Assembly: GCA_026400155.1 (NCBI GenBank)
Contig: JAPLPO010000024.1
Span: 44,053-76,052 of the forward strand
DNA from: Burkholderiales bacterium
GTDB lineage: Bacteria; Pseudomonadota; Gammaproteobacteria; Burkholderiales; Burkholderiaceae_C
Direction of reading: 5' to 3'
DNA: 32,000 nucleotides
Shown here: positions 10,487 to 16,830 of the stretch, piece by piece
Numbering within the stretch: position 1 is the first letter of the stretch
How the letters are laid out: each line of letters begins with the position of its first letter
Notes under the pieces: generated by a model
What the model was told of the DNA's origin: nothing
Seen by the model: only the letters and a program-made list of their open reading frames with translations
Database searches by the model: none
Program-made: the position numbers and the translations under genes

Positions 10487-10491
10487 TTTAG

Positions 10492-10530
10492 AACCGTCGT
10501 ATTACTTTGTAGTACGGCGGTTTTTCTTTT
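10492..10530 (+). terminator. Rho-independent terminator supplied by the island downstream of tRNA-Phe
   Basis: A 10-bp stem pairs aaccgtcgta with tacggcggtt (one G:U pair), with an 11-nt loop. It is followed by tttttctttt. Confidence 0.7.
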
Positions 10531-10589
10531 GGGGCAGCGTGTTTCACTTGTAAACGCCTACGCTGTACAGACTTTCCCCCTACGTTGCT

Positions 10590-11792
10590 GTGACTTTGTT
10601 GTATGACATACAGCACAAATACAGGGGAAGTGACACGGGATACGAAACTCCGTGTGTCAGTCGCCACGCTTGCCGCAGCACAACCCAGCACCGCTACCGA
10701 CTTGCTGACGGCACTTGGCACCGTGTATCAACACGTAAAGCAAGCGTAGAACAAGCAGTTGCTGTCGCTTGCGACTTGTACGACGAAGCACGGTACAGAC
10801 AACGCTTGGGTTTAGCACACCGAGCACACACGTTCGCACAAATAGCAGCGATTACAACAGCAGAACTGCGACGCAAGATTGACGCAACAACAGGCAAAAC
10901 ATCGTTTCACGATTACTTGTCTTGTATTGAACGTTACTTTCTTCCGTACTTTGCGGACAAACGCATTGAACAACTGACACACAGTGACATCGCGGAGTTT
11001 GAGGTGTGGCGTGATAAACAAATGCGACGTAAACCTAAAGCGTCAACATTACTGAACTTCGCAAGTGCGTGGAACAGGATTGTTGATACAGCAGTAACGC
11101 AGGGATACATCAGCGAACGTGTTCCAGTTCCCAAACTTACAACACGCGGAGAGAAAGGTAAAACACGTCCTGCGTTTTCAGAACAAGAAGTACAACAGTT
11201 ACTTGAGTTTATGAATGTATGGCAAACGCAGGGACGAATGGCTGTAGAACGTGACATTCGTCCTTTGTTGCGTGACTACATTGAAATACTTATGTACACA
11301 GGAATGCGTCACGGAACTGAGGCGATGGGTATCTGCTGGAACAACATAGAGTGGCACACACACAAAGATGTACGTTACATACGTATTTGGGTTGACGGAA
11401 AAACAGGTGGACGTTGGTTGATTGCGAAACACGCAGCAGTTGATGTACTGCGACGCTTACATCAGCGACAGCAAGACATACAACACCTGTCTTTTGATGA
11501 GTTGTTGTCGCAACGTGTTACGCATAAGTTGTTTCGTTTCAGCAACGGCTACGAACCGCACAGTTTTGTAGGTACGTTTAGACGTTTGATGCGTGACAGT
11601 GGATTAGCGTTGACAGCGGATGGACAGAACAGAACGCTGTATTCCTTCCGTCACACTTACGCAACATTAGAACTTATTCGTAACAGTACAGACATACACA
11701 CCTTAAGCAAACAGATGGGAAACTCTGCGGCAATGATTGAACGTCACTACAGCAAGTTGACGGCAACAACGGCAGCGGAAAGACTCGCTTAA
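10590..11792 (+). CDS. int: Tyrosine-type site-specific integrase (island integrase; start uncertain, GTG/TTG)
   Basis: The C-terminal catalytic domain has YTGMRHGTE (Arg), YSFRHTYATLEL (box II, xxR-H) and MGNSAAMIERHYSK (catalytic Tyr). The N-terminus has an arm/core-binding-like region. The gene is adjacent to attL. There is no in-frame ATG near the 5' end. Confidence 0.9.
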   Translation: MTLLYDIQHKYRGSDTGYETPCVSRHACRSTTQHRYRLADGTWHRVSTRKASVEQAVAVACDLYDEARYRQRLGLAHRAHTFAQIAAITTAELRRKIDATTGKTSFHDYLSCIERYFLPYFADKRIEQLTHSDIAEFEVWRDKQMRRKPKASTLLNFASAWNRIVDTAVTQGYISERVPVPKLTTRGEKGKTRPAFSEQEVQQLLEFMNVWQTQGRMAVERDIRPLLRDYIEILMYTGMRHGTEAMGICWNNIEWHTHKDVRYIRIWVDGKTGGRWLIAKHAAVDVLRRLHQRQQDIQHLSFDELLSQRVTHKLFRFSNGYEPHSFVGTFRRLMRDSGLALTADGQNRTLYSFRHTYATLELIRNSTDIHTLSKQMGNSAAMIERHYSKLTATTAAERLA

Positions 11793-11799
11793 AAAATAG

Positions 11800-11827
11800 T
11801 TGATTATTATTTTGAGATAGTTATGAT
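11800..11827 (+). promoter_or_regulatory. Candidate sigma70 promoter for the island lipoprotein/H-NS-like/orf315 genes
   Basis: TTGATT (11800-11805), a 16-nt spacer, then TATGAT (11822-11827), about 35 nt upstream of the ATG at 11863. Confidence 0.35.
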
Positions 11828-11862
11828 TACACGAAGAATATTCAACACAATGGAGTCACGCA

Positions 11863-12510
11863 ATGCTTAAAAACATTAAGACTGTCCTTACTGCTTGTAC
11901 AGTAACGTTCCTAACAGCCTGTGGCGGTGGAGGCGGAGACAGTGGGGGAAGTGTAAGTAATCCGCCTCAATCAACAGATAAAATCAGTGGGGTTACTCTG
12001 AACCCTGCTTCAGCAATTCAATCAGCATACACGGCTGTTGGAAATACTTCTGATTCAACTTACAAGTATCAGTTTAGTCAATCAAATCCAGAAACAATTG
12101 GCGGTAACACATATCAAGTTCAAACCATCATCAGAGTTGCTGCGGATGGAAATACTTCAACTGTGAAAAGATATTACACGTTGAATCCGTTTAAGATTTA
12201 CACACCACCCTACACTTATTCAGAAGCACCTGTAAATGGAATAATTTTACAGAATACAACTGTGACACTGTCTCTCGGTGTTCTCCCAACTTCAGCAAAG
12301 GTTGGCGACTTTGGACAATATGAAACATCAAGTTCTGCTGTGTGCGACACACTCGGTGCGAAAACTTGTGTAACGGTTGCTGGTAGTTCAAGTTGGACGC
12401 TTGATAAGGTATCAGATACTCTCGCACAACTTTGTTATGGTGCTTTAAACAATCCTAGAGCGACTCCTAGAACTTGCGTTAATTTAAACGCTAACAGCCA
12501 AATTGAATAA
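11863..12510 (+). CDS. Island-encoded lipoprotein, unknown function
   Basis: RBS GGAG lies 7 nt upstream. The signal peptide has the lipobox FLTAC, followed by GGGGGDSGGS. The gene has low GC. Confidence 0.75.
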   Translation: MLKNIKTVLTACTVTFLTACGGGGGDSGGSVSNPPQSTDKISGVTLNPASAIQSAYTAVGNTSDSTYKYQFSQSNPETIGGNTYQVQTIIRVAADGNTSTVKRYYTLNPFKIYTPPYTYSEAPVNGIILQNTTVTLSLGVLPTSAKVGDFGQYETSSSAVCDTLGAKTCVTVAGSSSWTLDKVSDTLAQLCYGALNNPRATPRTCVNLNANSQIE

Positions 12511-15277: not shown

Positions 15278-15598
15278 TTATGCTGCTTGACGTTTACGTC
15301 TGTTATCTTTGTATTCACCACGCTTAACACGTGCGGCAAGGTTAAGAACACGATAGCAATCCCCGTCCGTAATCCTGTCACGTTTATTTTTATCTGAATA
15401 GCAACGTCTGAAGTTTTTAAGAATCCGTTTTGTTGGTTTATCCAGTGTCGCAGAATACATATCGAGCAACTGCGTTGCCGCTTGCTGTGCTTGAAGTGTT
15501 TTTGGTTTGGTTTTGGTAAAAGATTTGATGTTGATTCCGTTGGTGCGTAACCAGTCATCTGTTTTCTTTGTATCTTTTAAGTTCTTGTAGTAGTTCAT
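15278..15598 (-). CDS. Hypothetical basic protein (106 aa)
   Basis: The ORF is Lys/Arg-rich, with a more plausible composition than the overlapping 102-aa frame. It has no clear RBS and I do not recognise a family. Confidence 0.4.
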   Translation of the reverse strand: MNYYKNLKDTKKTDDWLRTNGINIKSFTKTKPKTLQAQQAATQLLDMYSATLDKPTKRILKNFRRCYSDKNKRDRITDGDCYRVLNLAARVKRGEYKDNRRKRQAA

Positions 15599-15762
15599 AC
15601 ATTTATTTAGTAGCGAGATAAGAAAAGACGACTAAAACTGAGCGTTTATTTGGTGGTTTTCGCGTGTTTTGGACAAAATAGTTTTTTCAGCAGATTTCGG
15701 TTGTCCAGATACTGGTGATGAAACTAAAGTTAGTTCATTGCTACACAGAAAGGACATCAGCA

Positions 15763-16203
15763 ATGAACGCTTTGAATACATTGAAACTGGTCGCAGCACA
15801 GAAACCTACATCGCTGCCGCAAGTTGAACAACGACGCAACAAGTTGGTTAAACGAATTTGGGAACAGATTGAACTTGCTAAAGCAGAACAATCTGGAACA
15901 ACGTTTTCACCTGTTAAGTTCCGCAGTTACGCAGATAAAGAAACAGGTGTACGCAAGCAAGTAGAAACAAACAAGCGTGTTAAAGCGTGGTGGTTTACAT
16001 CTGAAAACGGAAAGTTAGCGTTATGTGTGCGTTTCGGTCCTAAAGTTTTAGAACTTGCGAAGGGTAAGTTTGCTGTTGAAGTTTCTAACAGCAGCGAAAT
16101 CGTCAACGTACTTGAGATTGTCAAACGTGCTGTACTAAACGGTGAACTTGACTCTGCGATAGACAACGCTGCGAAAAAACTACGTGACGGATTTGCGAAA
16201 TGA
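15763..16203 (+). CDS. Conserved hypothetical protein (147 aa) of a type seen in proteobacterial islands
   Basis: ATG at 15763 has AAAGGA about 9 nt upstream; the ORF track begins earlier, at GTG 15715. From memory, MNALNTLKLVAAQKP...RRNKLVKRIWEQIELAKA...WWF...ELAKGK...ELD resembles a recurrent uncharacterised family. I cannot name it with confidence. Confidence 0.65.
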   Translation: MNALNTLKLVAAQKPTSLPQVEQRRNKLVKRIWEQIELAKAEQSGTTFSPVKFRSYADKETGVRKQVETNKRVKAWWFTSENGKLALCVRFGPKVLELAKGKFAVEVSNSSEIVNVLEIVKRAVLNGELDSAIDNAAKKLRDGFAK

Positions 16204-16349
16204 AACGTTGGCAGTTGTGGGTGCGTGTGTCACTTACGCAAACAGCACACACTATCGTGTTTGCCAGCAACGCATACGAAGCAAAGTTGCTTGGCGAAGC
16301 ACATTACGGCATAGGAAATGTGCTGAACTACACAGAGATGTGTAACTAA
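16200..16349 (+). CDS. Small hypothetical protein (49 aa), translationally coupled to the upstream ORF
   Basis: It is below the ORF-track cutoff. ATG at 16200 overlaps the TGA of orf147 in an ATGA junction. It translates to MKRWQLWVRVSLTQTAHTIVFASNAYEAKLLGEAHYGIGNVLNYTEMCN. Confidence 0.35.
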   Translation: MKRWQLWVRVSLTQTAHTIVFASNAYEAKLLGEAHYGIGNVLNYTEMCN

Positions 16350-16382
16350 TGTGCGTTCCACATACGCATCATTAAATACTTG

Positions 16383-16577
16383 ATGCGTATTGCTGAAATA
16401 ACACTTAAAACAATCAAATCAAAACCGCCACTGACATTACCGCAGGCACGCATACACGGATTGAAACAAAATGTTGAACGCAGCAAACAGCAACTCAACA
16501 CAGAACGCGATCTTCAACGCAGACAGCGTGACGCAGAACGCAAACGTAAAACGCAGCAACGTTTATCTTCGTTGTAA
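16383..16577 (+). CDS. Small basic hypothetical protein (64 aa)
   Basis: The ORF has an Arg/Lys/Gln-rich C-terminal half. It has no clear RBS. It is the last ORF before attR, a position where excision or regulatory factors are sometimes found, but I see no recognisable HTH. Confidence 0.35.
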   Translation: MRIAEITLKTIKSKPPLTLPQARIHGLKQNVERSKQQLNTERDLQRRQRDAERKRKTQQRLSSL

Positions 16578-16830
16578 CGCACATCGCTGCGTTTCTGTAC
16601 GCTCATTACGTTACTTAAATCTTCAAAAAACCGTCAAAAGCACGGGTATTTGTGGGAAAAACATAGTGTTTTACAAACCGAGTGGCACGGGGAAGGCAGG
16701 TATAGTGAAAATACTTTCGCACACGGTTGCTGCTTTTGTGTTGCGTTTCTACGTTGCGTTTGTCGCACACCACTTTGCGTTTACGTTTTTGAACTTTGAA
16801 TTTGAACGGTTCGCAGTTTGGAGAGGTGCG

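Follow-up and report, generated by a model that had tools for sequence, protein, structure and literature searches.

A small tRNA-Phe island of freshwater Burkholderiales almost free of six four-base palindromes

Organization of the island

The window analyzed here is a 32,000-nucleotide stretch of a Burkholderiales genome (assembly GCA_026400155.1, contig JAPLPO010000024.1, positions 44,053 to 76,052), and it contains a small integrated island from which six four-base palindromes, GGCC, GCGC, AGCT, TGCA, CATG and TCGA (the six words), are almost entirely missing. The integration target is a tRNA-Phe (GAA) gene, the sole match in a scan with Rfam, and the arrangement is a simple one: the 3'-terminal 45 nt of the tRNA gene form the left attachment site (attL), an exact direct copy forms the right site (attR), and a tyrosine integrase gene adjoins the tRNA gene. 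The island body between the repeats is 44.1% GC versus 52-55% in the flanks. Relatives are referred to by locus handles, of which L068 and L069 are copies 97-99% identical to the island and found in other metagenomes. The features are as follows (aa, amino acids; ORF, open reading frame).

10411-10486, forward strand: tRNA-Phe (GAA) gene (ARAGORN; Rfam tRNA, 70 bits)
10442-10486, no strand: attL, left copy of the 45-bp repeat, with one TCGA and one GGCC retained by tRNA function
10487-16830, no strand: island body, 6344 bp, with 1 site for the six words versus ~150 expected
10590-11792, forward strand: tyrosine integrase (PHROG 1 integrase, E 1e-29)
11863-12510, forward strand: variable cargo slot, here a predicted 215-aa lipoprotein (signal/lipobox-like N-terminus)
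12568-12864, forward strand: 98-aa protein with a Lys/Arg-rich tail (weak match to PHROG 28387; conserved in L068 and L069)
12878-13825, forward strand: 315-aa conserved core protein (223 homologues, all unnamed)
13822-14394, reverse strand: 190-aa tyrosine recombinase, catalytic domain only (Pfam Phage_integrase, E 6e-28)
14395-15277, no strand: non-coding stretch of ~880 bp, free of the six words
15278-15598, reverse strand: 106-aa ORF holding the island's only TCGA (15462); a gene is also called there in L068
15715-16203, forward strand: DUF6641 protein, conserved in the family (Pfam DUF6641, E 2e-11; PHROG 31551, E 2e-21)
16380-16577, forward strand: 65-aa ORF, from the ORF list
16831-16875, no strand: attR, exact 45-nt repeat, where the depletion stops

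Absence of six palindromes

GGCC, GCGC, AGCT, TGCA and CATG do not occur in the island at all, and TCGA occurs once. Five of the 256 possible tetranucleotides have a count of zero, and all five are these palindromes. Other palindromes are present in varying numbers, including GATC (5 copies), CTAG (3), CCGG (2), CGCG (9), ACGT (54) and GTAC (37). The original prediction, which had read the DNA by eye and reported five zeros, a single TCGA, sparse GATC, CTAG, CCGG and CGCG, and dozens of ACGT and GTAC, is exact on recount in all of these respects, and its rough estimate of 10-25 copies of each word at a GC content in the mid-40s compares with the 15-24 per word computed from base composition alone.

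The window as a whole contains 974 copies of the six words, 973 of which lie outside the island. The depletion is bounded exactly by the att sites, as had been proposed, with the nearest sites on either side being a GGCC at 10479, inside attL, and a TCGA at 16854, inside attR; the two words carried by the repeat are not removable, because their loss would damage the tRNA that is rebuilt by integration. The longest site-free gaps in the window measure 4983 and 1392 bp and both are in the island, and the next longest is 287 bp. The sites that had been pointed out in the adjoining DNA are also present, with TCGA at 16955 and 16968 and two copies of CATG near 10208-10229. A depletion running through the entire host, which the original prediction had raised as a possible objection, is not seen in the window: the 973 sites of the flanks (1-10410 and 16876-32000) are at or near expectation, and GGCC (207 copies) and GCGC (216 copies) are at or above it in these 25.5 kb.

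We note that two other words are low in the host flanks under a dinucleotide model, CCGG with 46 copies versus 97 expected and TGCA with 152 versus 246, and the host flanks of most Limnohabitans-type relatives have the same low CCGG and TGCA. There is also a region of the left flank, window positions 6000-7500, where the GC content is lower (45-47%) and the density of the six words is about half; it overlaps an adhesin-E-like gene (5599-6273, reverse strand) and an unnamed 303-aa ORF. The remaining flanking genes include those coding for the flagellar proteins FliF, FliG, FliH and FliI and for TctC-family receptors, and to the right of the island are an AcnX-type aconitase and a dihydroxy-acid dehydratase-like gene, a gene set that fits a motile betaproteobacterium.

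Controls for composition and coding

Expectations that take neighboring bases into account leave the depletion intact. A first-order Markov model predicts 51 copies of TGCA, 28 of GCGC, 26 of CATG, 21 of AGCT, 18 of TCGA and 6 of GGCC, and a second-order model predicts ~133 sites in total. In 1000 dinucleotide-preserving shuffles ~150 sites are expected, against the 1 observed (Poisson P ~1e-63), and the observed value was reached in none of the shuffles for five of the words and in 2 of 1000 for GGCC. Coding constraints do not account for it either: when the 4677 coding bases were shuffled among synonymous codons (n=1000), keeping each protein and the island's own, already skewed codon usage, the mean was 79 sites and the minimum 57 (P ~5e-33 for the 1 observed). 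The 1667 non-coding bases are just as clean, with 0 sites versus ~39 expected. The exact k-mer, Markov and codon-shuffle comparisons that the original prediction had proposed are thus all survived by the depletion. The odd dinucleotide usage of the island (CC 0.49, AC 1.44) might suggest that the missing words are a by-product of base composition, codon usage, amino-acid content or chance, but this reading is refuted by the shuffles and the non-coding counts, and there is next to no prospect of its being correct. The dipeptides Met-His, Met-Gln and Trp-Pro, whose every possible coding sequence contains TGCA or GGCC, number 0 versus 2.3 expected, too few to decide.

The effect is confined to palindromes. 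Four further words are low, with CGCG at 9 versus 28 expected, AATT at 11 versus 36, CTAG at 3 versus 12 and TATA at 5 versus 12, and the most significant tetranucleotides after the six words, CGCG and AATT, are again palindromes. Altogether 8 of the 16 four-base palindromes are significantly depressed, and no pair of non-palindromic 4-mers is significant after correction for 130 tests. Six-base palindromes free of the six words are reduced as well (27 versus 64 expected). The proposal that the loss is specific to palindromes and is not a dinucleotide bias is therefore upheld.

ACGT and GTAC were described in the original prediction as enriched, and this part does not hold. Both exceed a mononucleotide expectation of 24, yet both sit at the dinucleotide expectation (54 versus 55 for ACGT, 37 versus 32 for GTAC), and they are tolerated in the island, simply unselected, rather than specifically enriched. 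AC/GT, AA/TT and CA/TG are overrepresented in the island, and CC/GG, AT, TA and TC are underrepresented. Among palindromes, AC, GT, AA and TT are confined to ACGT, GTAC, TTAA and AATT, the first three of which are little or not reduced and the last of which is itself low; the odd composition may in part be a by-product of the purge.

The possibility of a mirror image, in which the host avoids ACGT and GTAC and the island favors them, was considered and rejected. The host flanks have ACGT at 41 versus 62 expected from dinucleotides and GTAC at 43 versus 31, and the dinucleotide usage of the host goes most of the way to explain its low raw counts of these words.

Codon choice

Within genes the words are avoided mainly by a choice among synonymous codons according to the neighboring base, and selection acts on the DNA. 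Alanine codons illustrate this. Following a T, GCA is used for 0 of 51 alanines in the island and for 40 of 203 in host genes, and GCT for 26 of 51 and 33 of 203; following an A the preference is reversed, with GCA used for 30 of 41 in the island (35 of 152 in host genes) and GCT for 0 of 41 (33 of 152). GCG is followed by C in 0 of 33 cases in the island and in 57 of 123 in host genes, and ATG is preceded by C in 0 of 22 and 114 of 207, respectively. CAT followed by G, TGC by A, AGC by T and TCG by A never occur in the codon context of the island. Comparison with the integrase gene of the relative L031 gives a similar picture, with 15 of its 28 sites absent from the window through purely synonymous differences. 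Two Met-His positions in L031 (ATGCAY, which forces a TGCA) are Leu-Ser and Leu-Phe in the window, an anecdotal observation.

These codon patterns and the host counts bear on whether the sites simply decayed by mutation, through deamination of 5-methylcytosine at methylated sites while the island resided in methylating hosts. GGCC, GCGC, AGCT and CCGG are typical targets of 5-methylcytosine methylases, as such a process would need, but the host chromosome would suffer too, yet it retains its GGCC and GCGC in full, and neither exact zeros nor codon choice tuned to the neighboring base would be expected. Moreover, half of the six words (TGCA, CATG and TCGA) are typically methylated at adenine, a modification that is not mutagenic. 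We regard decay of this kind as scarcely credible.

Genes of the island

The integrase ORF as listed begins with GTG, but most relatives align only from residue 33 onward, and L068 and the relative L043 diverge upstream of it, which places the probable start further downstream. The lipoprotein in the cargo slot belongs to a rare family with 11 homologues. The 315-aa core protein is mostly helical in an AlphaFold model (predicted local distance difference test score, 80), with no significant fold match in PDB or BFVD. Protein searches with it and with the DUF6641 protein found no relatives in GenBank phages, PLSDB plasmids or IMG/VR, and the DNA of the island has no match among GenBank phages or PLSDB plasmids.

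The 190-aa recombinase is of the size of Xer or FimB/E proteins and is conserved across the family; its matches to the NCBIfam Xer and invertase models fall under the cut-offs. No convincing iterons, tandem repeats, inverted repeats or invertible segment are present in the non-coding stretch beside it (14395-15277). Judged by their arrangement, the recombinase and this stretch could form a multimer-resolution or switching module.

Scans with Pfam, PHROGs and NCBIfam detected no capsid, terminase, primase/replicase, capsid-redirecting or cos/pac features in the island, and no conjugation or mating genes or relaxase domain. The same scans together with PADLOC detected no methylase, restriction-modification (RM), anti-restriction or defense genes. 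From its gene content the island would appear to be neither a prophage nor a phage satellite, having neither the hallmark genes nor relatives in virus collections.

A family of islands in freshwater Burkholderiales

The element is a minimal integrase island of an undescribed family that occurs widely among Limnohabitans, Polynucleobacter and other freshwater Burkholderiales. Relatives of the integrase were found at 67 loci, and the plausible host labels among these are Limnohabitans, Polynucleobacter, Comamonadaceae, Oxalobacteraceae and other Burkholderiales, all of them freshwater bacteria. Several short contigs of the family are binned into unrelated phyla (Actinomycetota, Akkermansia, Cryomorphaceae), probably through mis-binning of compositionally odd contigs. 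Many of the 315-aa protein homologues are on contigs of ~6-7 kb. The relatives that could be delimited are 4-11 kb long, and most of those examined share the integrase, the cargo slot, the 190-aa recombinase and a DUF6641-sized gene. Cargo in relatives includes an AAA ATPase (L042) and a 407-aa N6/N4 DNA methylase directly after the integrase (L018:11145-12368), so that methylases or RM systems may themselves travel on islands of this family. Two contigs have features of their own: L043, a 6516-nt contig binned as Haliscomenobacter, has a syntenic element in which the integrase frame appears interrupted, and in L080 the 3.6 kb past attR (6832-10465) have 0 copies of GGCC, TCGA, GATC and CCGG and may be a second, tandem island.

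The relatives are purged too, but of different words. Counts below are observed/expected, and single numbers are observed counts.

L074: avoids AGCT 0/26, GCGC 0/41 and TGCA 0/69; tolerates TCGA 6/16
L076 and L078: avoid AGCT (0); tolerate TGCA and GCGC
L043 (in the tRNA-Phe of another host; integrase 91% identical as protein): avoids GCGC 4/35; tolerates TGCA 92/77
L004: avoids GGCC 0/26 and CCGG 1/15
L005: avoids GGCC 0/11, GCGC 1/24, AGCT 0/24 and CTAG 0/11
L007 and L042: avoid ACGT, 5/29 and 2/30, respectively
L016:9551-16402 (Polynucleobacter sp. AP-Reno-20A-A9), 6.85 kb: lacks TGCA 0/58, CATG 0/32, ACGT 0/45, GTAC 0/29, GGCC 0/7, CTAG 0/14 and CCGG 0/6; tolerates GCGC 42/34
L018:9791-20662 (Polynucleobacter sp. 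MWH-HuK1), 10.9 kb: TGCA 0, CATG 0, ACGT 0, GTAC 1

ACGT and GTAC, the two words tolerated in the island of the window, are thus eliminated in the Polynucleobacter island L016. A second island, L025:1-17000, is located on the same contig as L018, ~12 kb further on, and has 2 TGCA versus ~110 expected over ~17 kb, with few GATC and normal CATG; these two neighbors in one Polynucleobacter genome are both without TGCA and differ for CATG, ACGT and GTAC. Across 25 loci, with strong avoidance taken as an observed/expected ratio of at most 0.15 where at least 10 copies are expected, 27 of 355 palindrome tests in the elements show it and 8 of 5550 non-palindrome tests do (Fisher P 6e-27); in the host flanks the figure for palindromes is 5 of 364 (Fisher P 4e-5 against the elements). 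The simultaneous elimination of six words had been called extreme in the original prediction, and its degree is indeed unusual, but it is a family trait and not unique to this island, sister elements having been purged of other sets. Patterns that vary word by word and from lineage to lineage would not be produced by any fixed structural or compositional cause, and a changing panel of sequence-specific nucleases is able to produce them.

Mobility and ongoing selection

The element is currently mobile, and its att site shows an insertion polymorphism in the host population. In the metagenome contig L070, a single tRNA-Phe gene lies between a right flank 99.7% identical to that of the window and a left flank 96.7% identical to it, and is therefore an empty attB. 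Evidence of another kind comes from the close relative L074, which is located beside a host flank different from the window's. Its attL (80-175) and attR (6835-6885) differ by paired changes in the tRNA T-arm, CACTGG...CCAGTC in one and CGGCAG...CTGCCC in the other, both followed by a near-identical terminator-like sequence. Since the changes are paired, the two copies derive from different tRNA-Phe alleles, which suggests that L074 arrived from another host lineage, and it seems to carry the tRNA end, and perhaps flank, of an earlier host. The end of the 6337-nt contig L068 faintly suggests a circular or tandem form: att is followed there by TTT (6327-6337), matching the left end of the element and not the host flank, over only 3 nt.

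The near-identical copies also show that sites are selected against at present. The window island and L068 (97% identical) differ by 125 substitutions. One of the six words would arise from ~10% of possible substitutions, and ~12 new sites would thus be expected under neutrality; there are 2, both of them TCGA (P 4e-4; for the other five words, P 3e-5). Sites are therefore still being selected against, TCGA least strongly. In L068 the lipoprotein slot is swapped for other small genes, and these are likewise free of the six words.

These comparisons weigh heavily against the idea of an inherited donor signature, in which the island would have come from a distant lineage devoid of these words genome-wide and would not itself have been shaped by selection. 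The GC content and dinucleotide usage of the island are strongly unlike those of the host, as that idea would have it, but the flanks of the plausible hosts among the 67 loci are rich in the words, close relatives miss different ones, new sites are being selected against in near-identical copies, and the swapped cargo module of L068 is as clean as the rest. We consider such an origin very improbable.

Discussion

We think it likely that the words have been lost through selection against Type II restriction targets each time the island enters a new cell unmethylated, and this is the best explanation of the data. The restriction-site avoidance proposed in the original prediction stands insofar as the loss is palindrome-specific, survives the controls, is confined to the element and differs among sister elements. 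The emphasis on long residence in RM-rich hosts does not. An integrated element is methylated together with the chromosome, so selection would act only upon entry into a new cell, which implies frequent transfer among cells with different sets of RM systems, and both the empty attB and the att sites of L074 fit such transfer.

In outline, the island would spread horizontally with outside help, presumably on a helper phage or a conjugative element. Incoming DNA lacking the recipient's methylation would be exposed to the resident Type II enzymes, and copies with fewer recognition sites would establish more often. In the lineage of the window this would have removed GGCC, GCGC, AGCT, TGCA, CATG and, nearly, TCGA, and reduced CGCG, AATT, CTAG and TATA; ACGT and GTAC would have been left alone as words not targeted in its host pool. 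With only 6.3 kb to clear, mutation and selection are able to remove every site for a panel of 4-bp specificities. As the island encodes no methylase or anti-restriction protein, its fitness should rise with each site lost, and site loss is the sole protection visible. The ten depleted words that contain C or G are all prototype Type II specificities, those of HaeIII, HhaI, AluI, CviRI/HpyCH4V, NlaIII, TaqI, BstUI, BfaI, HpaII and MboI. Genes for RM systems rank with the most variable of all in populations of lake bacterioplankton (PMC9426551), which fits a shifting panel of specificities. The literature consulted on Polynucleobacter and on lake methylomes yielded no 4-bp motif data for these hosts.

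Several observations weigh against selection by restriction. Among the window ORFs scanned there is no RM gene with these specificities, and we thus infer the selective agent, restriction enzymes; we likewise infer the route of transfer. The att repeat retains its one GGCC and one TCGA, so immunity to those two enzymes is incomplete. In published surveys, temperate phages avoid sites less strongly than virulent ones do (Rusinov et al. 2018, PMC6286503), and plasmids show no stronger avoidance of 4-bp palindromes than core genes do (Shaw et al. 2023, PMC10359461); an integrated element with 4-bp avoidance of this kind runs against both survey trends.

The selecting nucleases might also be something other than classical host RM systems, such as endonucleases of a helper or of competing mobile elements, or an undescribed defense that cuts palindromes. 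The lack of a host RM system among the scanned ORFs is compatible with this, as is the methylase cargo of L018, by which islands may move such systems themselves, and nearly all palindromes are somewhat depressed (8 of 16 significantly, with the remaining 6-mers at 27 versus 64). But words are lost singly and in varying combinations, L016 keeping GCGC while seven others are at zero and L043 keeping TGCA, which points to many independent specificities rather than to one general palindrome sensor, and every word is a known Type II target. We judge these alternatives unlikely. It is similarly doubtful that the islands are an undescribed class of hitchhiker shaped by the palindrome-cutting arsenal of helpers or rival islands, in which case the missing words would be the record of an arms race between islands or between island and helper.

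Restriction-site avoidance has been known since the 1980s. It was reportedly described in phages and small plasmids by Sharp in 1986 and by Rocha et al. in 2001. Complete elimination of sites is reported for roughly one phage genome in ten (Rusinov et al. 2018, PMC6286503), and targets should be purged most readily from small replicons (Shaw et al. 2023, PMC10359461). The island is reminiscent of these cases in its composition-corrected loss of short palindromic Type II targets from a mobile element and not from the host. It differs in that six 4-bp words are gone at once and four more are reduced, in that the element is integrated and has no recognizable phage or plasmid genes, and in that the word sets of its family are specific to host lineages. 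The mechanism is thus already known, and what is unusual is the breadth (six words removed and four reduced here, seven removed in the sister island L016), the integrated setting and the host-lineage-specific spectra.

By architecture, the closest likeness is to the minimal integrase islands that target tmRNA genes and are transduced by jumbo phages (Zhao et al. 2025, PMC12595487) and to the integrative elements with only an origin of transfer (oriT), the 'iOriTs', that ride conjugative elements (Ares-Arroyo et al. 2026, bioRxiv 10.64898/2026.01.13.699239). Shared features are a tyrosine integrase beside a small-RNA gene, direct repeats, a variable cargo slot, no genes for autonomous transfer, and a wide distribution with signs of transfer between hosts. 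The present family is much smaller (6-11 kb) and has a core of its own, the 315-aa helical protein, the 190-aa recombinase and the DUF6641 protein. Phage satellites such as P4-like elements and phage-inducible chromosomal islands (PICI) are likewise small, with an integrase, an att site and a cargo hotspot by the integrase, and a helper dependence is plausible for the island as well; the difference is that Pfam, PHROGs and NCBIfam detected none of the satellite functions (primase/replicase, capsid-redirecting, terminase and cos/pac features) in the island, and that searches of IMG/VR and GenBank phages gave no relatives.

The island is a textbook-grade case of a small mobile element rewritten codon by codon, most likely to escape restriction enzymes. 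Small, widespread and unannotated elements of this kind are a probable cause of breaks in metagenome assemblies at tRNA genes, and many of them end up in the bins of unrelated genomes. For populations that are hard to culture or to type by methylome, the sets of missing words could give a readout, from sequence alone, of the restriction specificities that matter in them.

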